Notes: generated from the letters alone by a model not told the origin. DNA of 64,000 nucleotides from Schmidtea polychroa (GCA_044892525.1 CM097885.1:15502001-15566000), one strand, 5' to 3'. Positions 491-62,207 are shown, numbered from the stretch's first letter. Numbers and translations are program-made.

Positions 491-3945
<3,455 letters not shown>

Positions 3946-4829: not shown

Positions 4830-16562
<11,733 letters not shown>

Positions 16563-21961: not shown

Positions 21962-23290
21962 AATTTTGAAATATATAAATTTTAAATTATAAATAAAAAT
22001 TTTTAATAATCATTCTTTTTAAAAACAATTTTTAATAATCAATTATATTTAAACTTTTAAAATTATTAAAAATATTATTTAATTTTTTTTTAATTATTTA
22101 ACATAACTATTATTAATATACACCAACATACAAAAACTTAATTAAAAACATTCAACACACAAGTATTCACTGCATTCTGCACATTGATTTTAGGATTAAA
22201 AGTTCCTATCAATAATGCTTCACATATCACACGCTCAAAACAATTATCAAACTTTTTTGATAAGATTTTTAAATCAGACATTCCTAATTCTCTCATACAG
22301 ATTTTATTGTGATCCTTAATTTTGGACACCCTTCGGTCGACAGTGTTCTTGAACTCGAGTACAGAGATGACGGGAAGTCTCTCCAATGTATGTGTCATTA
22401 CACCCATTATATGTGAATTGATTAACGAGATCCAAACACAATTCAACCGACGTTTGAGATTTACTAACAAACATACTACGTACTTTGCACGATTTTGAAA
22501 CAATTCTATAATTCAATGTACCCAACTGTTTACCAATCTTTCTTTTGAAATCTTTATATCCTTCAGAATACGGCAATACCATCGTATATTTTGGCTCATC
22601 TTGTTTGTTAGTATCAATTCATATTCACTACATCATTCGACATATCAGTCAATTTACATTCATTCATACTACGATCCTTAGCATTATTCATACATTTATC
22701 AACAGTCTTTTTCAAAGTTAACAATAAAGACCATTTTGAATAGCCATTCTTCACCAGTTATTCAACTTATTACATTCAAACTCAGATTTTATTAAGGGTT
22801 TATATAATCCATCCAAATACTTCGGTATTTAATACTGAGCTGTTCCGAATATAGATAAAACAGGTCTCATGGGAACTCCGTCTTTATGCACTTTTGGAAG
22901 TCCGTATAATTTAGCTGGCTGTTAACCTTTTGCATGAACTAATTTTGCTACCTCTTCATCAATATGATTATTCTTAACTAAATCACACAACATAGTATTC
23001 AAAATCACTTCATCCTTTAGAGGTGTCAATCTCCCTTTTTTTCGAAACTTATAGATTTTTGAAAATTGAGAACCTGAGAGTACTTTATTTAATTTATTCA
23101 CATATACATCATGGTCCAAAATCACAAATCCATTTCCTTTATCAAATTTACAAACATTAATATCTTTCTTGGCTAAGTTCTTCAGTACCAAAAATTCCTT
23201 ATTATTCTGTTTTTTATTTTTATCAACATACTCAATCGTACTTGTACTCAGCATACTTTTTACCGTAAGTAGATCAATATCCTTCTTTGA

Positions 23291-23331
<41 letters not shown>

Positions 23332-23960
23332 AAACACATTCAATTTTTGCACGTAATTTATTTTCATCGATCCTATTTTTAATGCAATGGTTGGGACCAT
23401 ATTTTAAAATTCGTAACTCTTCATTAGACAGAACAATCTTACTCATATTAATCACAGTATTTTCAACATTAAATTTAGAGACACCAAATAATTTCCTCAA
23501 GTTCAATAATTTCTTAACACGCGAATCACTTTCAGATTTTAACAATGAAATAGAATTATTATTCTTATTCAATACAAACTTGCATACAAAATTCATTAGT
23601 TATGTTAAACAACGACAATCCAATTGAACATAGCTTTTCATCTAAGGACTTCCTCCGAATCTTTTCTGTTTCCAACATTCTTCTAAGCGTTCTTTGATGT
23701 ATTAATTGGATATCTTTATTTGAAAGACAATCACTGAGCTTCATTTTAAAAATGAAGGAAGGATTGAATGTTTTTAATTAAGTTTTTGTATGTTGATGTA
23801 TATTAATAATAGTTATGTTAAATAATTAAAAAAAATAATTAAAATAATATTTTTAATAATTTTAAAAGTTTAAATATAATTGATTATTAAAAATTTTTTT
23901 TAAAAAGAATGATTATTAAAAATTTTTATTTATAATTTAAAATCTATATATTTTATAATT
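21962..23960 (-). mobile_element. Penelope-like retroelement, internally deleted, bracketed by ~195-bp inverted repeats
   Basis: RT N-terminal motifs (KFDKGNGFVILD; AKLYGLPKVHKDGVPMRPVLS) and GIY-YIG endonuclease (YIGETSRHLCTRVQEH; EALLIGTFNPKIN). 21962-22155 is the reverse complement of 23764-23960. Confidence 0.92.
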
Positions 23961-24143: not shown

Positions 24144-25262
24144 ATGAGGATTGTACTCGTAAATGATTTATCTGAACCAGAAACTATCGATATTGACCAA
24201 AATACTGACTTCGCTACTTTTGAAATGATCGCTGGATCTTATGTTAACATTGACCCAGCTAGTATTATAATTAAAAAAGAAGGAAAAATAATCAAAGGTT
24301 TGCCTTCAAGCTTAATCGGTAATCTAGGTATTCGAGATGGGGATGTTTTGTTAACTTCCAGAAAGCTTCCACAAGTAAAAATTTATAATTTCGAATATTT
24401 ACTTATCGTGTAGACTGCGACAACTAGTTCAAATCGTATCGATTTTTCTGGAATTAATCCATCTCTATTATCTCGAGGAGGAAGTGCACAAAAACGTCCA
24501 CTTGTCACCTCTATAGCCGAACAATTCCGTCAACAGCTTTTGAAATCAACTCCAGATATATTAAGTCAATATAAAACTTTTAATCCAACTCTATGTGATT
24601 ATTTACACGATCCTGGTAAATTTTGTATTTAATGATTTTTATTAATGTTTCCAGTGAAATTTAAACAGATCCACGAAGAACAACAGCGAGCCGTTGAAAA
24701 CAGTAATCGAGAATTGGAAATATTAAATAGTGGTAACTTATTAGATCCGCAAGTGCAAAGCAAAATTGAAGAGCTAATAAAAAAGAAAAATATCGATTCA
24801 CAAATGGAGCACGCAATGGAACACAATCCTGAATCATTTGCTCAAACGACAATGCTGTATATCAATTGTCGAATTAATCAATTCAATGCTAAAGCTTTCG
24901 TTGATTCCGGTGCTCAAATGACTTTTATCAGCCTTAATTTCGCCCGGAAATGCCACGTGGACCATTTAATCGACAGCAGATGGAAAGGAATTGCCAGAGG
25001 TGTCGGTACGCAGCATATCGTTGGGAGGGTTCATTGTGTGCAGCTGCAAATCGCTGAGGTCTTCCTACAGATGTCTGTCAGCGTGCTCGAGGACCAGGAA
25101 ATGGATATGCTAATTGGGCTCGATATGCTCAAGCGCTACCAGTGTAGCATCAACCTCAAACGGAACGTGCTAGAGATCGGCAGTAACAACGTCGAAACAC
25201 CATTTTTACCGGAAAATGAACTGCCAGATTATGCTAAACTCAATTTCAACAATTCCTCTTGA
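24144..25262 (+). CDS. DDI1: DDI1/DDI2 homolog (UBL, helical domain, retroviral-like aspartyl protease), 3 exons, 346 aa
   Basis: Exons 24144-24374, 24414-24615 and 24655-25262 join in frame across two 39-nt GT-AG introns; motifs MEHNPESF, MLYINC, KAFVDSGAQMT, GIARGVG, GLDMLKR, FLPENELP. Confidence 0.95.
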
Positions 25263-28496: not shown

Positions 28497-28620
28497 CCTT
28501 GGTAGAAGCATTAATTATATTTTAAAACAATTAAATGATAATTTATGCATTTTCTGCGAATAATATATTTTATACAAATGAAAAAATTTCGATTATAAGA
28601 TAGCCCTTTCAATTTCCTGG
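28497..28620 (-). mobile_element. Diverged copy of PLE-terminal repeat family B
   Basis: CTTGGTAGAAGCATT...TTTCTGCGAATAAT...TTTCGATTATAAGATAGCCCTTTCAA. Confidence 0.7.
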
Positions 28621-29930: not shown

Positions 29931-29981
29931 TTTATTAATGAAAATTTTAAAGTTTACAATAACATTTATTTTAGTATAAAT

Positions 29982-30148
29982 TGATGATTACTTGATAGCA
30001 CCATTAATTAAATTTTAAAACAACTAAATGATAATTTAAGCCTTTTGTTACGAAAAATATTTTTAAAACAATTATTATTTTTAATACAATATGTATTAAA
30101 TATATTATTCGCAGCAAAGGGTTTAAGTTATCATTTAATTTTTTTAAC
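29982..30148. mobile_element. Fold-back copy of PLE-terminal repeat family B
   Basis: AAATGATAATTTAAGCCTTTTG followed by its inverse CGCAGCAAAGGGTTTAAGTTATCATTT. Confidence 0.7.
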
Positions 30149-32429: not shown

Positions 32430-32501
<72 letters not shown>

Positions 32502-33084
32502 TATTATAATAATAGTTGTTTCGACCAGTCAGAGGGGAAATTACATTTACCTCTGACTGGCAGTTTGTTTGGTGTTTTTTGTATCGCGTCTGTGCGCGCG
32601 GTATGATTAGACCGAATCTTGTTAGTGTGCGCACACAGACGCGAGAAGTAGGTTTTGGTTGTTGAATTGTAATTTTACATTGTTTTTTAGATTTTATTGG
32701 TATTCTGGAATTGATCTTTAATTTTGGTGGAATTGAATTTAATTCTAGTGATTAACGGAATTCTAAGTTTTGTTTGGTTAAATGAATTGATTTGAATTCG
32801 ATTGGATTTTTTGTATTCTGAAATTAAATATGGAAAATGAAAATGTTATTGAATCATCTGGTGAATATTATGATCCTTCTATTGGCCCAAGTATCGACAG
32901 AATAATGGCTGCAAAAGATAGTGCTATATATGATGCTGGAGATTCGTTTAAAGTTACAAGTCAAACCATAGATCTTTGGATAATTTTTGTTCATCGTTTC
33001 ATGTCAAAGAATAATAAAGCAGAATATGGAACTGCCGAAAAGAAGGAATATGATATTCTATTTAATAGAGCTCTTAAAAAGATC

Positions 33085-33130
<46 letters not shown>

Positions 33131-36100
33131 GTAATAATAATAATAAAAATAATAATAACAATAATAATATTTTAAACAATTAAATATTTATTTAGGCCTT
33201 TTGCTGCAAAAAATATATATTATAAGAACTTTTATTTCTTCCAATTTCACCACTGATTATTTTTTCCATTGAATTTATTGAGAAGAGAGTTTGAAGACTA
33301 TAAATCAGTAATATATCGATATTTGTTGATACTCACGAATTTTCGGCACTGCCTTTTTCAAGTGAATTTGATCATTATTACATTCAATAATTATTGTTGG
33401 GAAATTTTTATTTTAATTACCCAAATAATATTTCCTATATTTTAATTTTTATAATTTAATTTAATTTTTAAACTTTTAATATTTTATTTTATAAAAAAAA
33501 CGTTTATATATTTTATATATTTTTTTAATTTTAAATTTTAAATCTAATTAAATATTAATTTAAATATAAATTTAGTTGAATGTTGATGGACGGTTTAAGC
33601 TTTTTAATATAAAGAGTCTCCACGGCTAATCTTAACAATGAATTTTTGAACGCATCTTGTAACATTTTGCATTTTGTTTCGTGTAAGAGTGGTGCTGATT
33701 TGTGCATTTTTTTCCAGTGTTCGTGATGATAGCTGCTTTTGCTCTTGACGTGTTCGTTGAGTCTTGTTTGGAACGTTCTATGTGTTTTGCTCATGTACAA
33801 TGCGTCACATCTTGTGCAGGTAATTTGGTAAACAATGCTCTTTGATAAACAGAAACATTTGGTGGAGGATTGGCATATAAAATCTCGATGAAATAGATCT
33901 GATGTTAGAGATTTCTGAGAATTACGATTTCAAAGTTGCAGAAGTTGTAAAAATTGGGCGAATATGAACTGGCAACTCCATATTGCGAATATAAGCTCTG
34001 ATTGTATTACATGTCATATTTTTTAAAAAAGGGAAGCGTAGGTATATTACTCGCTTATTGACATGTTCCTTTTGTGTATAATGCCTATTAGAGTATTATT
34101 CACTCAAAAAGTATTTTTTCTACGAACTCCTTTGGGTATTCATTTTGTAAAAACCGTCCGAACAGTTCCGTATTGCTCTTTTTCTCTCTCTTACTAATAG
34201 AGCGATTTTTCGTTGGAGTGGAAAGTGACTTTCCCAAGGAAGAATGTGTCCAATTTGTAGACTTTTAGTGAATAAATCTGTCTTGAATGTGAGTGTGTTT
34301 GGACCTTCAGAAGGACTTATCATGGTATCTAAGAAAGAAATTTTGCCTTCTGGGTCAGGTAGTTTAAGAGTGAATTGTATATTAGTGCTAGTGGAGTTTG
34401 CATGTGCCAAGATTATATTGAGAAATACCGTGGAGACTATGAAAATGTCATTAATGTATCTTTTCCACATCAGGATTTTATCTCCAAAAATTAATCTAAT
34501 ATTAGATTCTATATAATGCATGTAGAAAATGGCTAAAATCGGCGAAAGGTTGTTACCCATAGCTAGACCATGAATTTGTTTGAAAGGTTTTCCTTTAATT
34601 AATACAGTATCTGAGTTTATAGCTAGTTTGACAATTTCTATGAAATCTTGTTCAGATAAGTCGGCAAAAACAGTTTCTGGTTTGAAGGTTTCGAAGAAAG
34701 AAGATGCAACTGTGAAGACGTTGTTCTCTCCAGTGAGAGGGATGGATCCATAAAGATTTGAAACATCAAGAGATCCCCAAAAGTATTGTTACTCTAATGA
34801 TGTTGAAAGAGATAGGTTTGTAATTTCTGCAACAAATTGGTTTGTGTTTTTAAGATGACAGGGGATAAAATTTATTAGATTTTTAAGGATTTCAGCAAGA
34901 ATCCTTGAAAGAGTTGTGAATGGCGTGTCAACAACACATACAAGAGGTCTACCATTTATAGGATCTTTGTTATCTTTGAGCAATATTGTCATGGTACTAT
35001 GTAAAGGTTCACTGCAATTGCATTTTGTAAGTAAATTTCTGATTTCAAGGTTATTCTGTTTGTTAGCAATGACAGCAAGTTTCTTATTAAATGCGATCTG
35101 CGAGGAGGATGGTAAGATCATTTTGTTTATTGCGGTATAATTGGGGAGATGTTCGTTGAAGAGTGATTCATAACGATCTAAGTTAAGCACCATAAGTCAT
35201 TTTGTCTTATCGGAAGGCAGAATTGTTAAATCTTTAAGGTTTATAAGTGTTTGTATATTACGAGTGAGAGATTTTTGTGTCGAGAGTTGCTCTTTCATGA
35301 GATAAGCCTGTTTCTTGACAATTTTCCTAATGTCATTTTCCATACTGATAATGTTCTCATCAATGTCATTTGGAAGGTCCGGCATGTTGCCGTATGTTCT
35401 ACGATTTGGATTGAGAAGATGATTATATTTTTCAGCGATGTTAGAAGATTCTGAATGAGATTCGGTTATTGATTTTTTTGTTTTTAGATGTAATCCAACT
35501 TGTCTTCTTAGACTTTCAAAAGTAGCATTAGTTATAATTTCAGTTTTGTTAATATCTTTCAGGTTTGGTGTTGGCACGAAAGTTGGTCCCTTACTAAGAA
35601 GATTTTCTTGTGCTTTGGTGAAAATGTAGTCGGATTTGTTTATAAAAGGTTGTGTTGTTTCTAAGACCTTGGTGTTGTTAGATGTTTTTTGAATAAGCTT
35701 ATTTAATCATATGATTTATGTGCCCGAGCAACGCCGGGAAGCCCAACTAGTCACGCTATGAATAAGCAATTTATGATGACTGAATTAATGACATTGATTT
35801 GTTTTGACTTTATCTCATATAAGCATCAATTTATTATAGAGTTATTCAGTAAAATATAATGGAATATGAAATTTCTGTATACAAGGAATATAAATACGAG
35901 GAGAAACCGGGTAGTAAAAAATAAATAAATATTAATAATTTGTTTTACTTCACTCATTGTAACAGATTAACATTTAGCTTTTTAATAAATAATAATTTTT
36001 TATTTTTATGTTAGTGAAAACCGGTTCAGTAGAATATAGTAAACAATAATGTAAAGATCGGAAAATTTTTAAGCGAAGTTTTGAGAATTAATATTTTGTC

Positions 36101-38817: not shown

Positions 38818-39031
38818 GTATTAGTATCAAATGATGATTGCTTGGTAGCAGCATTTATTATTTAAAACAATAAAATGAATATTTAAGCCTTTTGCTGCAA
38901 ATAATGTATTTAATGAAAGAATTTTCGACTATACGATAGTCCTTGTCAAGGACTATCGTATAGTCGAAAATTCTTTCATTAAATACATTATTTGCAGCAA
39001 AAGGCTTAAATATTCATTTTATTGTTTTTTA

Positions 39032-39104
<73 letters not shown>

Positions 39105-39892: not shown

Positions 39893-40409
39893 TTCAATTT
39901 ATTTTTATTTCGAATATTAATCTAGTCTAAAAAATAAATTTTTGTAAAGTCTTCATTAATAAAATCCTGCTGATTTATATGAACTTTCTCCGTTAAATTT
40001 GATGATTTAAACAAAACGGGTAATATAATGATTTAATAAAATTAATTATCTTTTAATAAATAATATGCAATAATTTGATTAAATAAAATTAGTTCTCTAT
40101 TTCTATATATTTTCAATATATAATATTATTTATGAAATTACATAAGTGTTAATTTATTAAATTAAATGGAAGTAAAAAAATATTTTCTATTTTAAATTAA
40201 TTTTAAAATATTAAAAAAAAAGAAATCGAAAATTGTTAATCTGTTGTTGAGAAAATAAAATATTTTAGTGATAAATAAAATAGAATAATTAATAAAATAA
40301 AATAAGAAAAAATAAATCCTTCATTATTTTCGATATTTTTATTTTTTCGATATATTAATTAATAATAAAAATAATTTTTTTCAGTTTATAAAAATATATT
40401 TAATTATTG

Positions 40410-41920
40410 TAAGAACTTTTTTCCAATTTCACCACTGATTATTTTTCCATTGAATTTATTAAAAAGAGAGCTTGAAGACTATAAATCAGTAATATATCGA
40501 TGTTTTATGAAATTCAATTGAAAAAGGCAGTGCCGAAAATTCGTGAGTATCAAAAAACATCGATATATTACTGATTTATAGTCTTCAAGCTCTCTTTATA
40601 ATAAATTCAATGGAAAAAATAATCAGTGGTGAAATTGGAAAAAAAGTTCTTATAATACATGTTTAAGGATCTTATGCTTGATTTCTCTGAAACCTTCAGA
40701 ATATGTAAATACTAAAGCGTATTTTTTCACCTTCCGAACTTGACAACATAATAACTTCAACATCAATAGGATCATTAGCTTCAGACAAACCGATACAAGG
40801 ATCATGAGTATTCAATATCCATTTATTAACGGTCTCTTTTGTCAAGAAAAGATTTAGGATATCCATTTTTTAGAAGCAGCACAACCAAATAATTTACACT
40901 TTTTACTGAATTGATAAACGTGGATGATAAAAACCATCCCTGAAATTCTAATATCTTACCATATTTCGCTTGTATTTATATTAAAGACCAGTATCAGTTG
41001 CTTTTCTGTATATTTCAGTCTGATAGATAGACATTTTCCTTCCATTGAATAAGCAGATCCAGTAACGGTATGATAAATATTTTGTCTTCTTCATACGAGT
41101 TTGATATCTTTTTGTTTTAAAAATTGGAGTTGGCGGTTTTTGTGAAAAATTAAAAACTTGTTATTCATAAATCTTTTGATTAAATATATATTGTTGGTTT
41201 CAAGATTTTTGATGAGAAATTAAAAGATTGATTTAAAGATAGATTTAACTATATGTAAATTTAATATTCATATGCAAATTATTCATATAATCTGAGAAAA
41301 GCCTTACATGATCACGATTCTCAAACCCTAACAAAATATCATCAACATAACGTTTATACACAGTTGGTTTAATTATATTTTATAATAAAATTTTCTTTTC
41401 TAAACTTGACATGACAATATACGCCATTGTTGGAGCCAAATGGGAACCCATAGCAACACCACCAACCTGTTTATACCACTTACTGTTAGAGAGAAAATTC
41501 ACATTCGACGTTGCAAATTCAAGTAATTTACGAAATGCAATTTCATCAACTTTCTCATGTTCGCTTGCAACATAAATCAATCGTTTCTAATAAGAAGACA
41601 TTCGTATAAAGACTACACATATTAAATGATACCATAAATTCATCTGTACTTTTTTATTCAGCTGCGAAATAAAAGTTGGAAATTCAAAGCTGTCCTTACA
41701 TATAAAATCAGTAATCATTAAAGTTTTTAATAACTCATCCAAAAACATAGCAATTTTGAATTGAGCAATTTTTACTATCGACAATACCGGTCTCATGGGT
41801 ATACCCACTATATGTACTTTAGGTAGTCCATAAAGTTTTGCTGTTTGGGAGCCTTTCGGTTGAAAAGACTTAGCCAAGTCAATGTCCAGATGTTTTTTAT
41901 CTGATAAATCTTTCAACACG
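40410..41920 (-). mobile_element. Penelope-like RT relic with an adjacent fold-back family A repeat
   Basis: TAKLYGLPKVH...PMRPVLS, GVAMGSHLAP, YKRYVDDI and YRKATDTG motifs; 40410-40506 is inverted against about 40553-40652. Confidence 0.88.
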
Positions 41921-44228: not shown

Positions 44229-46520
44229 CAGGCCCGACGCTAGAGTATTTGGCGCCCTAGGCAAACTAAAAAAATGGCGCCTCTAGTCTAGAAACAAACC
44301 CAATAATTAAAGAAGTAAATGAAAATAAAATAACTATACTTCATTTATTTATTACACAAAAATATATATAAAAACAAAAACCATTTAAAATTTAATTTTT
44401 CGTGCTTTTAGTTTAGCGAAATCTTCAAGCAGCAACTTCGTATCTATATCACGCGCCATTTCGTGTTCAATCGACAATATTGCTAATCCCACAAGCCGTT
44501 CTTGTGACATTGTAGATCTTATATATGTTTTGATCTGTTTAAGCTTCGAAAAGCTTCGTTCACCGCTTGCCACAGAAACTGGTAGGGTTAATAAAATTCG
44601 CAAAGCAACAAATATATTTGGAACGCTGTCCACTATATTATTTTTACAAATATAATTAAGTACATCTTCCGGCAATAAGTTTTTTGGAATATGTCTAGCT
44701 ATAAATATCAATTCGTTCAATAAATCTATACCATCAATATCTTTAGAATCATCGTGCCGTAAAAAATTTTCCAGTTTAAGACAATCCTCTAATATTTTCT
44801 TTGACGAAATATATTGCAAATTATGTATGTTGTATAGAAATCCAAATGTTGAATTTATCGTTGACATTTGGGTGAATCTTTGCTCAACAGATTTTAAAGC
44901 TCTATCCAAAACTGCGAAGTAAAAGCTGATCTTAAATTTTTCTTTTGGGTTCTGAATGGGCTCATCGTTGGCTTCATATTCGAACTGTTTTTTTTGTTTT
45001 CTGATACGCTGAGTTTGTTTAAAGATTGGGGAAATTTCTGATTCTTCAGCAAGTTCTCGCGCATCTACCAATATTCTTTCAAAACCTTCATCATTTCGGG
45101 AGTTGAATAGAAATTTTTTGGTATCTTCTAGTAGCTTCATAGCATCTTGAATATTAATTTTCTCAGATTGAAGTTGTTTGCTTGTAATATTTATGTTGAA
45201 AAGAATATCATACCAGATAATAACAGAAACTACAAACTCGAAATTCGAAATAGCTTTAGCAAGGCCCTGTGCTTCTATACGTGAAGTATTACCAGAAACT
45301 CCTGTTTGAGAAGTATCTTGAAAAATATCAATAAGTGCAGCAATAACTTTACTTAGCTGATAGCGTAGAGGTTTAAGGGCATCGATTCGGCTCTCCCATC
45401 TTGTATCGCTCAATGGCTTCACTGTCAAGTTTGAAGCATGACGTTTTAAAACTTCCCATCGACGTGTTGAAGCGGCAAAATAGACATATATTCGTTGCAC
45501 TAACATAAAAAATGATGTAGCATCTAAACAACAGCTTACAGCGTCATTAACAACCAGATTCAAAGAATGCGCAGAACAAGGAACAAATAGTGCTCGTGGA
45601 TTTAGATTCAGAATTCGCCGTTGCACGCCATTTTCTTTGCCTTTCATATTGCTACCATTATCGTATCCTTGGCCACGCAAGTTCTCAATAGGTAATGACA
45701 TATCTGCTAACATCTGAACGATTTCATCGGTCATACCAGCACCAGTTGTATCTGTTAGTTTCACAAATCCCAAAAAATGTTCTCTTATGCATATGGGATC
45801 TAAATCACAATTTTCTGTATTTGTATGGACAAAACGAATAATCAACGTCATTTGTTCAGTATGGCTAACGTCTGGTGTGCAATCCAGGATTATTGAAAAA
45901 TATTTAGCCATGGAAATCGATTTTAAAATTTTTGTTTTAATACTCTTAGATAAAAGTTGTATTAACTCATTCTGAATATCTTTTCCCAAATAATGAACTT
46001 GTGTTTCATTGTTCTTTATTCTGCGAAGATGCTCACCCATAATTGGATCAAAAGAGGCCAAATATTCTACAAAGCTAAGGAAGTTTCCATTTCCAGGAGA
46101 ATACAATTTTTCATTGCTTCCGCGAAATGCAATATTTTGCGTAGCAAGCACTTTAACTAGACCTATAAGACGCTCTAAGACTTGTTGCCAGTGTCTCTCT
46201 TCTTGTTTTATGAGACGCAAATTATCCTGGTCAATAGTTTTATTCTTTTTTAAACGCAATTCTAGCTCCTTCCAAGTTTGAAAATTATAGTAATTGAAGC
46301 AAAAACTTGATAATAAATTAAAATTTTATATAAATTATATAATTTTTAATTGAACAAATTAAAAAAACAATTTAAAAATAAAAATTATGAATAAAAAATA
46401 TATAAAACACAACAAATCAAAATAGCCTTAAGGTACAAAATGTTTTTATAAAAAGTTTTTAAAAATAGTTTTTATATAGTAAATGGCGCCTATGGCAAAC
46501 ACCGATCTTGCGCCCCCTAC
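44229..46520 (-). mobile_element. Second Tip100/ZMYM1-like hAT, lacking the N-terminal coding region
   Basis: One end CAGGCCCGACGCTAG; TGGCGCCYWRGGCAAAC-like subterminal motifs at both ends; second TIR not found. Confidence 0.85.
44385..46259 (-). CDS. hAT transposase reading frame, 624 aa, open but 5'-truncated
   Basis: FSIILDCTPDVSH, RGQGYDNGSNM, CSAHSLNL, TRWESR, PVSVASGERSFSKLK; no internal stop and no ATG at the frame start. Confidence 0.85.
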   Translation of the reverse strand: MRLKKNKTIDQDNLRLIKQEERHWQQVLERLIGLVKVLATQNIAFRGSNEKLYSPGNGNFLSFVEYLASFDPIMGEHLRRIKNNETQVHYLGKDIQNELIQLLSKSIKTKILKSISMAKYFSIILDCTPDVSHTEQMTLIIRFVHTNTENCDLDPICIREHFLGFVKLTDTTGAGMTDEIVQMLADMSLPIENLRGQGYDNGSNMKGKENGVQRRILNLNPRALFVPCSAHSLNLVVNDAVSCCLDATSFFMLVQRIYVYFAASTRRWEVLKRHASNLTVKPLSDTRWESRIDALKPLRYQLSKVIAALIDIFQDTSQTGVSGNTSRIEAQGLAKAISNFEFVVSVIIWYDILFNINITSKQLQSEKINIQDAMKLLEDTKKFLFNSRNDEGFERILVDARELAEESEISPIFKQTQRIRKQKKQFEYEANDEPIQNPKEKFKISFYFAVLDRALKSVEQRFTQMSTINSTFGFLYNIHNLQYISSKKILEDCLKLENFLRHDDSKDIDGIDLLNELIFIARHIPKNLLPEDVLNYICKNNIVDSVPNIFVALRILLTLPVSVASGERSFSKLKQIKTYIRSTMSQERLVGLAILSIEHEMARDIDTKLLLEDFAKLKARKIKF

Positions 46521-46582
46521 TTACTTTTTATTTTCTAAAAAACTAATTTAGAATTGGGTAAAAAAAGCACACAAGTTAAACC

Positions 46583-47600
46583 TACAGTTGGGTATTTTCC
46601 GAGAAAATCACATTCTCGAGATTCGGGATTTCCCGAAGCAAATTCTATAGAATTCTCGAGAAGTCTAAAATCAATGTAAAATAAAGAAATTCGAAAAATA
46701 TGTTTTTTATTTAAGTAAGAAGTAGTAAACAATTAATTAAAGTAATTAAAGTCGTAAACAAAATAGTAGTAAAACAAAAATAGTTCAAAACATTATTAAA
46801 ATAGAATAGAGTATTAAAACAAAAATAATTCAAAAATATTATTTACTAAAATAAATTTCAGAAAACACAGACTGTCAATGGCTGCGTCTGACAATCGCGT
46901 ACGCTTTTGCGAAACAAAATTCCCCGACGTAGAAAAATTGCGCTCATTTTGATTCGAAGTTGGCTTAATTGTATTAAAAGCCCAGATCAGTCTTTGAACA
47001 TATTTTGTTTTCTGTCCACTTTTTTCATATATATTTAGTTCGTTTTTAAATGACGGGAAAAGTTCGTTTGACTCTTGTTGCGCAATGTTTTCTTTTGGTT
47101 TTGAGCATTGCTGGACATAGTTTTCAAGTTGTTTCGCCATATCTTCTTCTTCAACGCTGTTGTTCACAATCACAGCATCATCGGCAGAATCAGAAACTGC
47201 TTGCTCTTCTTGAATGCTTGTAGAAAAGACGAAACAGGTACGCTTTGGCAGATAAGAAAGATCTGCTAGTTTTCTTTTTAGGCTGGATAGAAACTCGTCG
47301 CATAATTCAGTGTGTTGATTCTCCAATTTTGTGAACAATAGTTTTAGAATAAAATCCGTTGCAAGTAAGTTCACATTTTGGCGGCTGAGAGCTTCGACAG
47401 CAACACGAATAAGTTTTAGAGCATTAATGATATTCTCACAATGCTTTTCTTCTGCTACAGTAGTTGCCATAACCGTTAAATTGAGCGTGTCGATTTCCTT
47501 ACAAACGTGCTTGCTGATGCGAATGAACCTCGTCAGCATCGATTGAAAGCTGTTCCAACGTGTCTTACAATCCAATAGCAAGAAAAGCTCTTTCTGCAAA
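46583..47600 (-). mobile_element. 3' part of a ZBED-type hAT, cut by an LTR-like insertion
   Basis: LLDCKTRWNS and KPTSNQNERNFS...RTRLSDAAIDSLCFLK; CTCGAGA-rich subterminal region. Confidence 0.85.
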
Positions 47601-48020: not shown

Positions 48021-48446
48021 TAACCGTTAATTTAAGGGCTAAAGGTCAGTGTCAATGTATACCTTGATGTAAATAAATAAATATTACAATAGTTGTTTAC
48101 TATTATCAAGATTTACCTACAAATGGATTTAGCATGAATAATAATTTTTCAACTTTCTATAATTTCGTAAATATTATATTTATTAAAAAACTTGACCTAT
48201 TGTGGATAACTCATGGTGCATGTGATGGTGGATGTATAAAAAATATTAATAATAAATAATAATGATTGTTTCAGCCGATTTTGGATGGTTTTTTTGTATC
48301 GCGTCTGTAAGTTATGTTTCTGTAGTAATAGATTTAAATCGATCTTTAATTTGTGGAATTTGGTTTTGATGGTTTGTTAATGGAAGAGCAGGAATCGTTT
48401 GTTTGAACTGGTAAATTGTGTAGAAATTTTGGTTTTTAGTTGAAAC

Positions 48447-48973
48447 ATGGAAGAAAATGAAGGACTGAAATGTCGTATTGCAATGAGCAATATAGCGAAG
48501 ATTATTTTCTCACCTGAAGGGAGATTATTCCAAGTCGATTATGCATTTAAGGCAATTGCATTAGATGGATTGCTTTCCGTTGGTATTCGAGGATATAATG
48601 GTGGTGTAGTAGCTACACAAAGAAAAGTTCCAGATAAAATGATTGAGAAGAGTTCAGCTACAAGATTGTTTAATATTACTGAAAGTACTGGATGGGTTAT
48701 GACTGGTATGATCCCTGATTGTCGATTTCAAGTATGTCGTGCACAATGGAAGCAGCTCGATTTAAATATAAAAATGGATATGAAATGCCTTGTGACATAA
48801 TATGTCGTATCGCGGAGATTAATCAGCTCTACACCCAATCGGCTGAGATGCGACCATTAGGTTGTTCAATGATAGCATTATCTTATGATATTGAAATGGA
48901 CAAACCGTTATTATTCAAAACTGATTCCAGTGGCTTTGTAGCTGGACATCGAGCTTTTGCAGTTGGAGGCTAA
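48447..48973 (+). pseudogene. PSMA6: Intronless, truncated proteasome subunit alpha type-6 copy with a foreign N-terminus
   Basis: IFSPEGRLFQVDYAFKAI, QRKVPDK, VMTGM, EAARFKYKNGYEMPCD, YTQSAEMRPLGCSM; frameshift near 48750, stop at 48971-48973; the native MSRGSSAGFDRH-type start is absent. Confidence 0.92.
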
Positions 48974-51076
48974 AAGTTATTTGGAAAAGAAACTAAGTAA
49001 AAATAGAGCGTGTGATACTATCAAATACAGAAAGATCTTTTTGACTTGTTTTAGACGAAAACAAACGATAATAATAACAAATAATAAATAATGATAAATA
49101 ATAATAAAAATAAGAATAATAATAATATAAAACGAAGATTCCTTGCCAGTAGCATCGATTAAAAATAAAATAATTAATAAATAAAGTTTTAGTGCAAATT
49201 TCTTATTTAATAAAAACAAAAATGAGAATTTTCGACTATGAAATAATCTTATTTAATTGATTGAAAAATAAATAATAAAATTCCACGAGTGGTCAATGTA
49301 GGTAAGGTGATTGCTCGCCATATATTCTCATGAAATGACCATACTTTGCCTTTTGATGGACATGAAGGACATTTTGTATCAGACTATTGCTGGAGGTACT
49401 GTTTTATATGGATGCCACGTGGCAGCTGCCTGAGAGCCGCAGGAATATCCTAGAAGGCCACTATTAGCATAGAAAGGAACTTATTTCACTCCTCCTTCAC
49501 TCACCAATGAGAATGAATAATAATCTAATGCTTTACTGATCCATCTCAGCCATGTAGAGGCGCCATTGAAAGCTTGGTCACACCGCGTGCCAATACTCAT
49601 GCTCATTGCGGAAAATCCAGTCAAATCGCCTTCATTGCCCTCATAAACATTACACAAATGCACTCAGTCTGGGACAGATTCCTCGCTATCCGTTCTGAGT
49701 AAGCTTCCGTTTTGTACAGCTCCTTTCATGCATGCCATCCGATATGTCAGTGTAGGATCTTGCCTGTGTACAAGTTTCCAAACCTTCAAATTGAGGATCT
49801 CATCATTAATTCATATTCATACACAAGGTAACACCACAGGTAATACTTAGCTAAATATTCTATGCGAATGATTCTTCCTTTCCTAATATTGACGTTTGTA
49901 GGCTACGGAATAAGTGATATGCAATTATATTTCTGTCATTGTTGATATAATCTGTAGCCCCCCCATTCCCTCCATTTATCATGTCAGTTAGTGTCAAATA
50001 CTTTATTCAGCAATGGCATAAAATCCTTCATTCAATAAACAAATATTGAAAACTAAATAAAACAAGCGTTTCCAAAGCATTTATCACACGGGGCATGGAT
50101 ATAGATGAATGCTACTGACGCCCTGTGATCTATTCCGTCAACTTTTACACATTCGCTATTGTAGGAAAAACTCTTGATAGAGTCCCCTAATAAGTCACGT
50201 CACAATGTATCAATGAGTTCGATGACACAACAAAGAACAATGAAAGATGAACACGGTTACTGCGGAATGGCATCTGAATGGTCCTGACAATTGCTCAATG
50301 GTGTCCATTAATTGGATTAATATTAAAAAATAAAAAACAAATGTTTCATTTTTTGCTGAACCTGCTGTGACCGAATTCTGTGCCATATTTATGTACATGC
50401 ATCAAAACAAACACCCTCCAGCACATCCACAGTCGCATGCACCAGCACATGCACCAGCACATGCACCAGCACAGTGAACTACAATTTGATAGAATCAATT
50501 AAAATTAAGTTTCAATTAGGCATTGTATTGATCACAGATTTCATAAAATTATACAAATATTCGTTACAATTTAATTTTTTATTGTGTTAAATCTAATCCA
50601 ATTTATCAATATTGGTTTGTGCTTTTGACATTTTATCATTGCACCTGTCACAATAAAATGTGAAAATGTCAATATGGGGCTCACAGGAACCTTGTACACA
50701 TTTGAAAATGTCAGACAAATATTTGTAACCATAACGAGATCATTAGATCAATATATATGCATTTTATGAAAAATATTTATTTTTATATTTTGATATATTT
50801 TTAATTTGTATTTAAATTTGTATTTAAAATTTTACATTTCGTTATAAAATTATAATTTAAATAATTTTGTAATATTTAAAATAAATGAGAAAAAAATTAA
50901 CATTAATAATAAGGCTAAAATACAATATTTATAAAATGTTTGTTTATCTACATCAAAATACAAATTATAAATATTGAAATTGTCAACGTCAGCGGAAATA
51001 ATTAATATAATAAGTATGATTTATGATTGTTGTGAAATAATGAAATATTTTGAAAATTTTGTTAATTTTAGATAAA

Positions 51077-52507
51077 ATGTTTGCAAGCGTATGGGAAATG
51101 ATGAAGAGGAATAAATTTGAATTTGATAATGAAATCAGCAGTGAATTGATATGCAGAATTTGCAAGGTTTTAATGATAAAAGCTTGCAATGCTCCTTGCG
51201 GTTGTCGCTTTTGTTCTGATTGCATTGAGCAATATTTGGATGGAAAAGATAAATTCTGTCCAGTAGCATCAAAACATTGTGGAAAGAAAATGATCAATTT
51301 CAAAAAAGATGTTTCTGAAGATCACGCAGCCAATTTAAGGATTTCAGAAGTGATAGTGAGATGTCCAATGCAAAATTGTCAATTCAAAGATGAATTAGAG
51401 GTGATGGAGAGCCACATGAGAACATGCAACAAGCAACCAATGAAATGTCCATTCAATAGAATCGGATGCGAAATGAATGAGGTGGTAAAGGATGAAATGA
51501 AAGTCCATCTCAATGAGAACACTGAAGGCCATAGCAAATTATTGATCGATCAGATCAGTAATCTATGCAATGAGATGCAAGCAATGAGACACGAGAATGT
51601 GACATTGCGTAATGAAATTATCAATATTAATGTAAAATTTTATTTGTAATTAATTTAATTGATATTTGTGATTGTAGGTGAAACTGGCCAATCTTGAAAG
51701 GAAAGAGGCGGAGAACAGAGGAGAAATAGAAGAATTGAATGAGGAAATGGTGGCATTGAAGAATGAGAATCGTTCATTGAGAATGGAGATGGAGACAAAT
51801 ATTGGATCAAACAATCAAGTTTGATTATTGATTTGATTTGATATTGATTTGTTATTGATGCAAAGCAGGTCAGACAACAAATTGAAATGAATGAATCAAA
51901 ATGTCAACAGCAAATTGATGAGATGAAAGAGAAATGCGAGCAGCGGCTGCAACAGGGGAATGCAAAGGTGATTTATTGATTTATTAACGTGTTTGAATTT
52001 GAGATTCAGTTGCAGCTTGAAATGGCGAAATGCGCCAATGAAATTCGCCAGATTGAATCAAAATTAACAAATGAAAAATATATAAATTATGGATTTTTTG
52101 AATGGCAAATCGATAAATTTTCACAACAAAAGAGAGGTGAAAATATTTACAGCGAGGCATTTTATTCCGGGCCAATCGGTTACAAAATGTGCTTGAGGGT
52201 GAGCATTAGGGGTGATTGGGTTGGGGTTGGTTTCTGTTTGATGCGTGGGGCAAATGATGAGCAATTGCATTGGCCGTTCAATCAATCCGTGACAATCGAT
52301 GTGATCGATCCAGCAAATGGCAGCATTTATATGAGCAAGTCAATGAAATATTCAGATTGCCCTGGTGCAGCCGGATGGAGGAAACCGTCACAAGACAGAA
52401 ATGATCCAATTGACATTTATTATGATTATCCTGATGCCATCTCAATCAATAAATTAGCAGCCAGAAGTGATAAATTGCTGCTCAGGTGCAGAATTGAAAA
52501 ATTATGA
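51077..52507 (+). CDS. TRAF-like protein (RING, TRAF zinc finger, coiled coil, MATH), 4 exons, about 430 aa, apparently intact
   Basis: Exons 51077-51631, 51678-51818, 51869-51967 and ~52010-52507 join in frame; RING CRIC...PCGCRFCSDC...CP; MATH YSEAFYSGPIGYKMCLR, LMRGANDEQLHWPF. Confidence 0.9.
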
Positions 52508-53559
52508 CAAATTTAAAAAAACATTTCAATAAAGAATTTATTTTGGGTTTTGATTTGTTTTATTGTTTGCCTTTTTTTATTATATTTTTATTATATTTAT
52601 TATATGAGATAATTATTGTGGTAATTATTGCCATTCTCGCCTTCCATCCGATATCATCATCACGTGGCGGAGCGCGCACAGCAAATGCCAATTGCAATAT
52701 CAACATCAATTATATAATTAAATAAAAGCAATTTAATTAAATCAAAAACATTTAATATAAATTAATTTGAATAATTATTATAATTAAATTAATAATTAAT
52801 TTGAAAGAAATGAAATTAAAATTCACCCGAATATAAGCGCTGACAAATCGCCTCAACAAATCAAGCGCTCCTATGACGAGTGGAACTGACGAGAAAACCG
52901 CCGCTGATGTTATATGAGTTGTGGATAAATTATTGCTGTACTGAATGGCAGTAAAATGCAGCTAAATGCAATACTAACACCGCGTTATATCAAATTGATA
53001 AATGCCTTAACATTTCGCCAGCTATTTGTGAGGCATTTAAACGGAAATCCGCAACAACAATACTGATCAAATGTTCGAAATTTGCTTTCACATCTGTTTG
53101 GGTAAGTTTACCAAAATTAGAGCTGTCGATTCGATGAGGGCAATCAATGCTTTCTAAACTCTATAACATTCTGTTACGAATTCTTTTAATAATTAAACGA
53201 ATTACTTTATTTAATCTTTCATAAAATTTAGATTTACTAATAATATTATTGTTAATATAATAATAATAATAATTGCATTTGTACTGAGATCCTTTTCAAG
53301 AGCTTTTGACCTGATTTAATATTAAATAATGTAACATTTCATAAATTTATTCACTTTTTCATTCGTTAAATTTTCAAATACAATATTATTTAAACAAAAA
53401 AAGATTTCATGTAAATTAATATTTAAATTCACAAATTTGATAAATTTTATGAATGCATTTTACTTATTAACAAACAACGAAATTTATTTTGAAATCTTGA
53501 AATTTTAGGAAATTTATAAATTAGGTTTCAAAGTGAAGTTGAGTCCAATACGTAATCTA

Positions 53560-56363: not shown

Positions 56364-58478
56364 TAGAGTTTCCAAAATATCCGGTTTTTTAGTATCCGCG
56401 AATACCGCTTTTCATTATTCGAAAACCGCGGTTAACCGGTCGAATACGGATATTTTGGAAAAAGCTAATTTAAAAAAGAAAAGATAAAAAAAAACTCGAA
56501 AAATTGTCAATTTAAGATGAAAATTTATTCACTTTTTTTCATTTATATACAAATATTTTAGAAAAACTAAGCAATTTAGAGATTAATCAGATAAATGGGT
56601 TCAAAGTTTACCACAAAAGTGGGAGGAAACGGAGAAAGTCCTTTCGGCTTCGTTTGATGATGGCTTTATTGTTGTTAAGGCTTCAAATAATTTTTCAAGT
56701 TTTCAGGCCTTTGAACTGTTTTCTTAAATATCATAAAGTCATCGTTGATGTTTAAGTTGGATTTTTGAAAATTTCCGCAAGTAACATAATTAATTGCAGT
56801 ATCAAGCTCTGCTTCCAACGAAACTGGTGCATCCGTGTTCAAATCTACATGTTTTGGTGAAGATGAAGGTGACATGATGAAGAAGATTCAAAAAGTCTAG
56901 CAAACAGATTAGATGCAAATTCCAAAACAATTTTTGATGGTTTTATAGAGTTATTGGTGAGGCATGCCAGAGTATCAATAATGGTAGAGTTTTCTCGTTC
57001 TTTCATCCGTCGTTCGATATTTAATTTTAATGTACTACAGATCACGTCATTACATTCATTCAATTTGTTGTACAGAAAATTCATCGCTCCTTTTGCTGTT
57101 AATAAATTGGCGTCTTGTCTCCCCAATGTTTCAACAGCTAATGTTAATGGTTTTATTGCATTCATTAAGCTGCACAATTTTTCGAAATCTATTCCAGATA
57201 CTAGGTGAAGTGCATTTAATTCGATCAGCGTGTTTTGAATTGGAATTCGAACTCTGAGTAGTTTTTCTAACATAGGATGAATAGAGTTCCACCTGTGTTT
57301 CAGATTTTTTTGTATGTCGACATCTTCATTATCTGCGAATTCTTCTTCATTAACATCATCATCGAAAAATTCATTGTCTTGGAAGTCGTCATCATCTTCT
57401 TCTTCTATAATGTCAACATCATTTGATTCAAAAACTTTCTTTTAATAAAATGTTTCAATTACCGCCAAATGCAGCCCTTGACATAAACATAACTGTGATT
57501 CAGATGGACAATCTGAACCATACTTCACCATTACCCTGGCACCATCATTTGTAGTATAAACAATGTCGTTTTGGAACGAAAAATTAAACAACTCTAAATG
57601 CTTGGTTACAATTTCAAACACTACAGCTGCAGTACACGAACCAGTAGCTCTCACCAAACCTAGATTGTTGCAATTTCCATTATTTCCATGTACATTAATA
57701 TTAATAATGCGACGATTTCGTGCACTTACCCACTCATCAAGGGTTATACTAAACTTACTATATCATTCTAAATTGTTGTTAATTTTTTTATTCCCTCTTG
57801 TTTTCTATTTCGAATTCAGTATCAGTTATATCCTCTGTCTACAATAGATTGTCTGATAAACTTGAAATTTGTAATTGCACGAATTGTTATTCCGTTTTCA
57901 GCAGCTAATCTTGAAACAATCTCACTTAAACTTTGCCGTTTAACAAAATCCATCATCGTATTTCCTTTGATTTTCTTGAAGTTTTGCTCTTGCTCACCCA
58001 AAATGGATTCATCATTATCCCGTTTACAATAGATTTTGTGTACCATTTTCAGATGGTTTAGCATACCACCCGTGTTTCCATTACTATTTGAAATAAAAAC
58101 TATTTACTTTAAAAACTGAACTTTGGCAAATTTTTTATTGGTAGAAGGAATTTTTAAAAATATTCTCAAACAGGAGCTGATGGTGCCATGGGCTAAATAG
58201 TAGTACAATATAAATTTAATACAAGTTTTACGGTAAAAAATAAATTAATCATAATTACCTGTGATTATTTTCAATTCTTTGATTTGAGAGCTTTTAACAA
58301 TTTCGCAATAACTAATTATATCGATTTTTCATTCTATTTAAAATTTTATTCTATACATAATTTAAAATAATTTTCACTATCCGGTAATCGCGAGTGTATT
58401 TGAGCGGATACCGAATACGGATTTTTGTCTGCAAATTCGCGGATATCGGATACGGATTATCCAAACTGTCAAACTCTA
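56364..58478 (-). mobile_element. ZBED-type hAT with a decayed, internally deleted transposase
   Basis: TIR TAGAGTTT; perfect 8-bp TSD AATATAGG; BED finger remnant TGGMLNHLKMVH; LDEW, TNDGA, CLCQGLHLAV, HRWNS, KPSSNEAERTFS. Confidence 0.95.
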
Positions 58479-59455: not shown

Positions 59456-59806
59456 CAATGAAAAATATTTATTTTGATATATTTTTAATTTGTATTTGTC
59501 GTTAAAAATGTTAAAATTTTACATTTCTGTATCAAATTGTAATTTAAATAATTTTGTAATATTTAAAATAAATAAGAAAAAAATTAGCATTAATAATATT
59601 TTGAATTGCTCTAAAAGCTAAAGAACAATATTTATAAAATGTTTTATCTACTTCAAAATACAAATTATAAATATTGAAATTGTAAACGTCAGAGGAAATA
59701 ATTAATATAATAAGTATGATTATTGAAATGTTGTAAAATGTTGAAATATTTTGATAATTTTGTTAATTTTAGAGTTAATTTTATAGTTTGTTAATTTTAT
59801 AGTTAA

Positions 59807-61403
59807 ATGTTGGCAAGCGTATGGGAAATGATGAAGAGGAAAGAATTTGAATTTGATAATGAAATCAGCAGTGAATTGATATGCAGAATTTGCAAATGTT
59901 TAATGATAAAAGCTTGCCATGCTCCTTGCGTTTGTGGCTTTTGTTCTGATTGCATTGAAAATTATTTGGATGGAAAAGATAAATTCTGTCCAGGAGCAGC
60001 AAAACATTGTAGAAAGAAAATGATCAATTTCAATAAAGATGTTTCTGAAGATCATGCAGCTAATTTAAGGATTTCAGAAGTGGTAGTGAGATTCCCAATG
60101 CAAAATTGTCAATTTAAAGATGAATTAGAGGTGATGGAGAGCCACATGAGAACATGCAACAAGCAACCAATAAAATGTTTATTCAATAGAATCGGATGCG
60201 AAATGAATGAGGTGGTAAAGGATGAAATGAAAGTCCATCTCATTGAGAACACTGAAGGCCATAGCAAATTATTGATTGATCAGATCAGTAATTTGTGCAA
60301 TGAGATGCAAGCAATGAGAGACGAGAATGTGACATTGTGTAATGAAATTATCAATATCAATGTAAAATTGTATTTGCAATTAATTTTATTGATATTTAGG
60401 ATTGGAGGTGAAATTGTGCAATATTGAAAAGAAAGAGGCTGAAAACAGAGAAGATATAGAAGAATTGAATGAGGAAATGGTGGCATTGAAGAATGAGAAC
60501 CGCTCATTGAGAATGGATATGGAGACAAATATTGGATCAATCAATCAGGTTTGATTATTGATTTGATTTGATATTGATATGTTATTGATGGAAAGCAGGT
60601 CAGACAGCAAATTGAAGTAAATTGAATCAAAATGTCAGCAGCAAATTGATGAGATGAAAGAGAAATGCGAGCAGCGGCTGCAACAGGTGAATGAAAAGGT
60701 GCTTTATTGGTTTTTTGAAATGTTTGAATTTGAGATTCAGTTGCAGTTTGAAATGGCGAAATGTACCTATGAAATTTGGCAGATTGAAACAAAATGTCAA
60801 CAGCAAATTGATGAGATGAAAGAGAAATGCGAGCAGCGGCTGCAACAGGTGAATGAAAAGGTGCTTTATTGGTTTTTTGAAATGTTTGAATTTGAGATTC
60901 AGTTGCAGTTTGAAATGGCGAAATGCGCCAATGAAATTCGGCAGATTGAAACAAAATTAGCAAATGAAAAATATGTAAATTACGGATTTTTTGAATGGGA
61001 AATCGATAAATTTTCACAACAAAAGAGAAGTAAAAATATTTACAACAAAGCGTTTTTTTCCGGACCAATCGGTTACAAAATTTGCTTGTGGGTGCTGATT
61101 GATGGTAATTGGGGTATTGGGGCTGGTTTCTGTTTGATGCGTGGGGCAAATGATGAGCAATTGGATTGGCCGTTCAATCAATCCGTGACAATCGATGTGA
61201 TCGATCCAGCAAATGGCAACATTTATATGAGGAAGTCAATGAAATATTCAGATAGCCCTCTTGATGCAGCTGGATGGAGGAAACCGTCACACGACAGAAA
61301 TAATTCAATTGGTATTTATTATTATCCTGATGCCAGCTCAATCTATAAATTAGCAGCCAAAAGTAAAAAATTGCTGCTCAGGAGCAGAATTGAAAAATTA
61401 TGA
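59807..61403 (+). pseudogene. Second TRAF-like copy, frameshifted, with an internal 162-bp tandem duplication
   Basis: Collinear with 51077-52507; a 1-nt insertion gives QIEVN* at about 60624; zinc-finger Cys lost (VRCP to VRFP). Confidence 0.85.
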
Positions 61404-62207
61404 CAAATTTAAAAAAACATTTATATAAAAAATTGATTTATTTTGGGTTTTGATTTGTTTTATTATTTGCCTTTTTATTATAGCAAATTGCCGATTGCAA
61501 TATCAATAATATTGCAAAATCAAAAATATTTAATATAAATAATTATTTTAATTAAATTAATAATTAATTTGAAATTAAATTTAAATTCACCCGATTATAA
61601 GCGCTGACAAATCGCCTCAACAAATCAAACGCTCCTATGACGAGTGAAACCGACGAGAAAACCGCCGCTGATGTTGAATGAGTTTTGGAGAAATTATTGT
61701 TGCATTGAATGGCAATAAAATGCACTTAAATGCAATACTAAAACTGTTATATCAAATTGATAAATGCCTTAACATTTCACTAGCTATTTCTGAGGCATTT
61801 AAACGGAAATCCGCAACAGCAATGCTGACAAAATGTTCGAAAATTGCTTTCACATCTGTTTGGGTAGTAATTGTATTTGTACTGAGATCCTTTTTAAGTG
61901 CTAGTGACCTGATTTAATATTAAATAATGTAACATTTCATAAATTTATTCACTTTTTCATTCGCTAAATTTTCAAATTAAAACAAAAAAAGATTTCATGT
62001 AAATTAATATTTAAATTCACAAATTTGATAAATTTTATGAATGAATTTTACTTATTAACAAACAACGAAATTTATCTTGAAATCTTGAAAATATTTTGGA
62101 ATTATTTGAAAATATTATTCACTTATTTGAAATTATTTTGGAACCTGAATTAATTAGGTACATCAGAAGTTGAAGGTTGTTAAAGTCAAACTTACAAGTT
62201 TTGGGAT

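Follow-up and report, generated by a model that had tools for sequence, protein, structure and literature searches.

Introduction

Host-gene capture by retroelements has a related case in the transducing retroviruses, and in yeast Ty1 the Gag protein starts within the LTR and is read across the primer site. To our knowledge, none of Ty1, the transducing retroviruses and maize Bs1 combines a host mosaic borne in the LTR with a ubiquitin-Gag fusion. Bs1 contains pieces of three host genes (PMC5131818), and LTR-mediated retroposition in animals is described as a rare process in which internal ORF sequence between the LTRs is replaced by cargo (Tan et al. 2016, PMC5131818). In cytopathogenic pestiviruses, a viral protein is preceded by captured host ubiquitin, and cleavage by host hydrolases leaves that protein with an authentic N-terminus (PMC8310069). 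Two groups of elements known from planarians are also relevant: Burro/GYPSM1, giant Gypsy elements with host-like domains, a ubiquitin-like one among them, in their polyprotein (PMC6431247), and the Flow superfamily of BEL/Pao, described from a planarian and from cnidarians (PMC3118150). All comparisons made here relate to the available portions of these papers.

The locus considered here lies in a window of 64,000 nucleotides from Schmidtea polychroa (GCA_044892525.1 CM097885.1:15502001-15566000, designated G000:C1:15502001-15566000) and belongs to an element family that resembles each of these systems in part. As in the published cases of LTR-mediated retroposition, which include a mosquito BEL element, partial, spliced and mostly sense pieces of host mRNA are carried, multi-gene chimeras occur and further copying rounds follow (PMC5131818); junction microhomology, a feature of those cases, is found at both hand-read junctions of the window copy. 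Unlike in those cases, each of the two LTRs of young elements, of which some retain gag-pol, contains the cargo, which precedes Gag and is found in hundreds of copies; one internal cargo is also present, in the shorter of two subfamilies. Pestiviruses are RNA viruses with sporadic insertions (PMC8310069), whereas here a whole retrotransposon clade has ubiquitin as a constant component, with a cleavage that is predicted. Burro/GYPSM1 are instead Gypsy elements of >30 kb, whose extra domains belong to the internal region, where they follow Gag, and do not form a swappable LTR cassette (PMC6431247). With Flow, compared by its description, the family shares a DUF1759 Gag, RT, Pao peptidase/RNase H, integrase, DUF5641 and a size in the range, and the carrier possibly belongs to this superfamily; in the main text of the Flow paper the word ubiquitin is absent and capture is mentioned for env only (PMC3118150).

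The literature searched yielded no account of host sequence captured within an LTR and in frame with ubiquitin-Gag; Repbase reports, subscription papers and supplements may hold one. The arrangement is absent from the available text of the BEL/Pao survey (PMC3118150), a giant-transposon review (PMC6431247), a planarian genome comparison (PMC11410931) and three works on planarian piRNAs (PMC6824462, PMC10954484 and preprint 10.64898/2026.01.28.702291). Template-switch capture by LTR elements is known (PMC5131818), and the BEL/Pao LTR as an in-frame cargo bay before ubiquitin-Gag appears to be new. The reading preferred here, which we regard as probable from the sequences compared, is that Gag has its frame opened within the LTR, together with intronless host pieces that were likely acquired by template switching of the reverse transcriptase and are likely tolerated through a predicted cleavage of ubiquitin.

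A decayed solo LTR in the window

Judged by its structure and its sister copies, the interval 48267..49063 (plus strand) is almost certainly a decayed, dead solo LTR of a BEL/Pao retrotransposon family. It measures 797 bp, runs from TG to CA and has the subtype start TGTTTCAGCC. A sequence-only reading of the window had described a repeated leader fused in frame to a proteasome alpha-6 (PSMA6) retrocopy at 48255..49130; the repeat unit is real, but its extent is narrower than given there and its frame is broken, with gaps near 48745, 48807 and 48963 and stops at 48798-48800. The left target-site duplication, AATGAT (48261..48266, plus strand), lies within a short AAT tract, while its counterpart on the right, AACGAT (49064..49069, plus strand), matches at 5/6 positions and is followed by a degenerate AAT tract to 49127. 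This 6-bp duplication with one mismatch contrasts with the 5 bp usual elsewhere in the family. In the array sisters L006 and L007, AATGAT stands on both sides.

The LTR opens with a non-coding leader (48267..48446) from which most of the palindromic hairpin of the sister copies is missing. An ATG and 18 codons from the start of an earlier RING-finger cargo (48447..48499) come next, followed by the spliced PSMA6 piece (48500..49008), which corresponds to host CDS nt 36-562 at 93.7% identity and contains the three gaps, and by a tail common to copies with different cargo (49009..49063), which ends in GAAAACA; all are on the plus strand. The AATACA located 40 nt before the LTR end is likely to be a poly(A) signal. 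As had been claimed, the ATG at 48447 leads in frame into PSMA6, encoding MEENEGLKCRIAMSNIAK and then proteasome alpha sequence (Pfam PF10584, PF00227). The piece represents codons 12-187 and crosses two splice junctions without introns. In a search run on the sister copy L056, the best relatives of the PSMA6 cargo were flatworm PSMA6 proteins at 62-67%. Since the leader peptide equals the start of the RING cargo, whose ORF MEDNECLICRISMSNIAK in L129 matches zf-C3HC4_3, PSMA6 has on this evidence displaced part of an earlier RING capture. The leader is not the normal 5' region of PSMA6. The hand-read junctions of the insert show microhomology, GA(T/C)TATT on the 5' side and GTAAAAATA(G/A)AG on the 3' side, which fits the earlier proposal of a template switch onto host mRNA.

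A second LTR of the family, of subtype TGTTTCGACC, occupies 32517..33085 (plus strand), with two 5' hairpins and a different, unnamed cargo ORF from 32830. Its usual 3' end is absent; family matches stop near 33086, whereas sister L025 goes on. The first 144 nt have an RNA fold z of -4.8 (0/200 shuffles). An (AAT)n target tract without assigned strand borders it on the left (32430..32514) and another on the right (33085-33169). The ordered blocks reported as shared between the two sites are present: BLASTN between them recovers two matches, one of 30 nt (90%, E 7e-5) and one of 26 nt (E 0.003), and the local alignment score is 78 against 45.6 +/- 7.1 in shuffles, with a maximum of 75 (n=300).

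The window holds further features. A DDI1-like ORF at 24645 was considered as a second retrocopy and rejected, upstream exons being present; it belongs to an ordinary gene for a DDI1-like aspartyl protease with short introns (24144-25262), and the statement that neighbouring genes are intron-rich holds for this gene, the one checked. Remnants of hAT-like transposases, recognised by eye from ORFs, lie on the minus strand at 816-3251, 44385-47539 and 56845-57273, with 816-2313 resembling 44458-45908. Fragments at 22922-23596 and 34120-35193, also on the minus strand, resemble Penelope-type reverse transcriptase ORFs. Tandem TRAF-like genes, ~88-90% identical, are found at 50766-53502 and 59458-62090, the second with a 162-bp internal repeat.

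The carrier is a BEL/Pao retrotransposon

The family has LTR structure, a tRNA-Met primer site, a polypurine tract, target duplications and BEL/Pao gag-pol. LTR pairs in direct repeat surround an internal region in L063, L065, L068-69, L077, L114, L224 and others, with L065 and L077 carrying the 5' subtype of the window copy, and in paired copies a primer site follows the first LTR and a polypurine tract precedes the second. The junction of the terminal CA with the primer site has 351 exact genome matches, the control none. The primer site is complementary to tRNA-Met(cat) of the same genome, a sequence which we take to resemble the initiator tRNA. Tandem tRNA-Met(cat) genes with a 454-bp period were observed at G000:C1:79.33-79.39 Mb (L203-L208), and the motif has 1228 exact genome matches.

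Between the LTRs, DUF1759 Gag, RVT_1, Peptidase_A17, integrase motifs and DUF5641 follow one another in BEL/Pao order (L217, L068, L069, L114, L224). In L217, Proteasome and ubiquitin matches lie in a single ORF with downstream gag-pol domains. One subfamily has an internal region of ~5.9 kb with gag-pol, and the other mostly one of ~3.5 kb without pol, one such copy having pol; the polypurine tract of the window subtype is common to the shorter subfamily. LTR pairs are mostly 98.8-100% identical, with older pairs at 97.6, 96.8, 96.6 and 89.8%, and this near-identity implies that the family was recently active. The presence of the same cargo on both Gag types (L181, L188) points to recombination between the two subfamilies. 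A second, internal host-like insert lies at the end of the long ORF in a member of the shorter subfamily (L224:4924-5622); it has no Pfam match, and in three runs it matches a 2.2-2.4 kb contig that extends on both sides.

The layout around the primer site also occurs outside this genome. In the metagenome BEL/Pao protein P0138, 27% identical over 92% of the query region, the frame passes AATAAA, CA and a primer site identical to that of the family before it reaches a ubiquitin-like domain and Gag-Pol. Its cargo position is taken by a 30-nt tandem repeat, and the contig, the single one from which the wider genomic context of the relatives is drawn, ends before the LTR start. Ubiquitin precedes Gag in four further relatives among 153 Gag relatives. 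Because P0138, with its tandem repeat in place of cargo, and these four share the order, the LTR-crossing ubiquitin-Gag layout is likely older than the host cargo.

Cargo consists of spliced host mRNA pieces

Relative to two parental genes the cargo has lost its introns, and it lies in sense and in frame. The only intact host PSMA6 gene found (L210, C1:117275317-117276192) encodes 247 aa and has introns of 50, 43 and 42 nt. PSMA6 copies in LTRs comprise at most CDS nt 36-562, with identities from 98.1% down to 78% and many different endpoints; of 82 distinct copies, 36 span junction 1 and 69 span junction 2 with no intron there. A second PSMA6-like locus (L209:6712-7117, G000:C3:79.62 Mb), broken, more diverged and with a C-terminal part that the LTR cargo lacks, was rejected as the parent. 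In the Adaptin_N cargo, presumably gamma-COP, seven exon blocks of the parent L243 are joined at 95-100% identity. The introns of both tested parents are missing, and the pieces were likely picked up from host mRNA by reverse-transcriptase template switching. The microhomology at the junctions rests on the two hand-read junctions, an automated survey having been noisy and often having set PSMA6 against itself.

The expectation that other copies would carry different cargo behind the ATG is borne out by about 15 host protein families recognised by Pfam in LTR ORFs. They include Proteasome, Ras, DSPc, EAP30, SelR, CLP_protease, Myotubularin, Adaptin_N, Cofilin and WD40 and, further, two RING types, JAB, Suf, HSP70 and zf-Nse; some of the cargos we take to be Rab1, DUSP12, CstF-77 and CCT-gamma. 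Mosaics within one ORF are common, as in the Ras-Proteasome-SelR combination of L030 and L160. Pfam matches were found in 45 of the 100 longest sense ORFs (of 182), among them a match to Gag, two to internal ubiquitin and a weak one to Helitron, against one of the 100 longest antisense ORFs (of 186), which apparently lies beyond its LTR; antisense ORFs are shorter, which weakens this comparison. For PSMA6 pieces, an LTR start was located upstream in sense in 101 of 111 and in antisense only in none, with 10 unassigned.

An open frame from the LTR through ubiquitin into Gag

The frame that encodes HGSRAW at the primer site is open for at least 100 codons upstream of it in 24 and downstream in 18 of 30 loci, four of which are array duplicates, while each other frame scores 0/30. 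It is likewise open upstream in 12 of 19 additional junctions, and for 26 of 29 PSMA6 pieces it is also the frame of the PSMA6 coding sequence. On the 3' side of the primer site, a variable AT-rich spacer is followed by one or two ubiquitin-like repeats and by Gag. These repeats end in Gly-Gly in 47 of 54 cases, with the variants LRGG, LAGG and LCGG, and host proteases are predicted to cut Gag free after this Gly-Gly. Upstream, 33 of 49 junctions have AATAAA or ATTAAA at a distance of 35 or 41 nt from the LTR end, where it encodes a recurring NKI peptide; this suggests a long R region containing the cargo.

Directly after the primer site GTA is present in 41/41, and it may be a U1 site that suppresses the poly(A) signal of the 5' LTR, in the way known from HIV-1. 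A spliced intron in the AT-rich spacer was considered and rejected. Unspliced read-through is preferred because 10 of 14 measurable spacers keep the frame without stops and, as we read the sequence, a splice to the closest acceptor would put the ubiquitin out of frame. Contigs from runs guessed to be RNA, which were given no weight in this choice, cover parts of gag and show no splice joint at the GT that follows the primer site. The signal for a membrane anchor in the spacer is weak, the best 19-residue hydropathy being 1.37 (L217), and in L224 the spacer does not hold the maximum.

Stop codons are avoided in the cargo while amino-acid change is near-neutral. In the selection test, 77 of the 82 distinct PSMA6 copies were compared with the host gene, with array duplicates collapsed and alleles rather than events counted. 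Omega was 1.3 for singletons, 0.98 for alleles in two copies, 0.84 for those in 3-5 and 0.72 for those in six or more. Singleton alleles contained 9 stops where 11.2 were expected, and alleles in at least three copies contained none where 6.6 were expected (Poisson P 0.001). Seven of ten shared PSMA6 indels are not multiples of three, which speaks against open-frame selection unless neighbours cancel; several lie in close pairs and possibly do so, the net frame having been tested as far as the primer site. The best reading of these patterns is selection on an open frame and hardly on the cargo protein. As the copies counted are related, all the proportions of copies given here overstate the number of independent events.

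The same element could be read with cargo selected as a shield, in that host-like, well-translated 5' sequence delays piRNA recognition or makes silencing costly to essential mRNAs. Although compatible with the preferred reading, this addition is unlikely. It would suit the repeated replacement of cargo and its origin in housekeeping genes, as well as the reports that planarian SMEDWI-1 makes piRNAs from poorly translated transcripts (PMC10954484) and that SMEDWI-3 degrades mRNAs matched by near-perfect antisense piRNAs (PMC6824462). Abundant mRNAs, however, are also the likeliest to be co-packaged, and the distant relative keeps the same junction open with a tandem repeat that holds no recognisable host sequence.

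Less probable still, and in our view quite doubtful, is an action of released cargo proteins on the host, for instance the dampening of defence by an incomplete GTPase or proteasome subunit. No cargo was seen more often than PSMA6 (at least 155 matches, with 150 of 1279 candidates scored), ubiquitin or trafficking pathways are involved for several cargos, and the fall of omega from singletons to widely shared alleles is in the direction such a function would predict. Against it, omega does not depart far from 1, erosion has taken the PSMA6 piece to its many endpoints and lowest identities, and domains are cut mid-fold and fused at random.

Family size and insertion sites

The leader is, as had been suspected, a high-copy repeat, with 59 matches in the genome. 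Exact 5'-end motifs of three subtypes have 1129, 107 and 92 genome matches (controls 0, 4 and 0), the start of the window copy being the one with 92. Twelve of these 92, the window copy included, lie in the duplicated array at C1:15.55-16.25 Mb, so that its nearest sisters are segmental duplicates and not new insertions. A large segmental array at G000:C1:15.48-16.74 Mb contains a dozen or more repeats of the window locus together with its neighbours. Copies in unique DNA start with TG, end with CA and have 5-bp duplications (ATGAT, CATAT, CCCGT, CTACG, ATATT, ACTAT); with ends taken from LTR-LTR alignment, the duplications are GTTAT, ATTAT, GTAGG, ATATC and ATAAA, and CTAAG, GGTAT, CTATT and CGATG. 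The proportion of 17/18 exact 5-bp duplications is circular, as solo calls demanded a 5-bp match, and shows only that longer duplications are rare. Ends were unresolved in 58 of 129 sampled copies, and some "solo" ends called within microsatellites are false. In an empty-site comparison for the L114 element, its flanks, which are repetitive, lie next to each other in two runs but are separated by 17 other letters.

With array duplicates dropped, an AAT/ATT tract forms the left flank in 24 of 73 sampled insertions, against a background, taken over all positions, of 2.0% for fetched DNA and 2.1% for the window. Insertions in such tracts occur in both orientations, and two thirds of all insertions lie outside them. 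The tracts that were noted beside both window copies do adjoin them, and they are best taken from these counts as preferred target DNA, neither a tail nor part of the element; growth of a tract after insertion is possible.

R4/Dong elements encode a reverse transcriptase and a restriction-like endonuclease, have no LTRs, leave 5'-truncated copies and insert sequence-specifically into (TAA)n in one orientation. The sequence-only reading had favoured an unclassified, possibly (TAA)n-targeting retroelement and had pointed to the R4/Dong clade, and a (TAA)n-targeting LINE or SINE that switched onto PSMA6 mRNA would account for the excess of AAT tracts on the left and for spliced cargo. It is now highly improbable and, for an R4/Dong-like LINE, refuted by the paired LTRs: the ends are fixed at TG and CA, duplications are short, direct-repeat pairs enclose BEL/Pao gag-pol with a tRNA primer site and polypurine tract, and orientation and placement relative to the tracts are mixed. 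Capture of gene fragments at the DNA level by a cut-and-paste transposon with TG...CA ends, as in Ginger or Pack-MULE elements, whose terminal inverted repeats are long and whose cargo bears introns, has practically no remaining probability, since the short terminal inverted repeat TGTTT...AAACA and the long inverted end of L051 that recall it are outweighed by the loss of both tested parents' introns, by the primer site and polypurine tract, by copies in direct repeat around retrotransposon genes, and by the polypurine tract on the left of L051, which marks a rearranged 3' LTR.

Rearranged members were observed at L051, L080:5688-5702 and L250; they comprise a folded-back 3' LTR, a head-to-head pair of LTRs within a single AAT tract, and a tandem of two elements with one LTR in common. 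A dispersed AT-rich repeat of another kind, often a long perfect palindrome, repeatedly adjoins AAT tracts and also lies beside LTRs in L051 and L064; in the window it is found at 15085-15255, 28498-28612, 29964-30144, 33165-33372, 38825-39036 and 40390-40664.

A model of capture and its implications

On the preferred reading of an LTR-borne Gag frame with template-switched cargo, transcription would start near the 5' end of the LTR and polyadenylation would occur near its 3' end, making most of the LTR a repeated R region. Within the particle, the enzyme would switch at short homologies onto co-packaged host mRNA or other RNA of the family and then back again, and the switched product would be copied into both LTRs. 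Spreading would continue only for captures whose frame is open from the LTR ATG to Gag. As deubiquitinases would cut the Gly-Gly-ended ubiquitin, the leader would be free to be almost anything. The integrase would duplicate 5 bp of target DNA (at the window copy 6 bp, or 5 with an additional base) and favour AAT tracts, and LTR-LTR recombination would leave solo LTRs like the window copy, itself multiplied later by segmental duplication.

A broader view can be offered tentatively, and we hold it to be more doubtful than not: that a BEL/Pao clade moved Gag initiation into its LTR and, with a cleavable ubiquitin before Gag, gained a standing capture bay, that the host mosaics serve as camouflage against translation-coupled piRNA surveillance, and that the thousand-plus solo LTRs act as chimeric mini-genes and as piRNA sources feeding back on essential mRNAs such as that of PSMA6.

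When LTR elements capture host genes, this is usually a rare event that affects the internal region and cripples the element. In the present family capture is routine and compatible with young gag-pol copies, and its site is the duplicated segment, which persists in the genome as solo LTRs. For annotation this is a warning, as hundreds of apparent PSMA6, Rab-like and phosphatase "paralogs" in such a genome are LTRs. For the family, a ubiquitin-dependent step of Gag release is predicted. For the planarian, the LTRs are a candidate source of gene-matching piRNAs in its stem cells, and they amount to exon shuffling on a genome scale under a measurable rule, by which the frame is kept and the protein is not, that can be checked in hundreds of natural copies.
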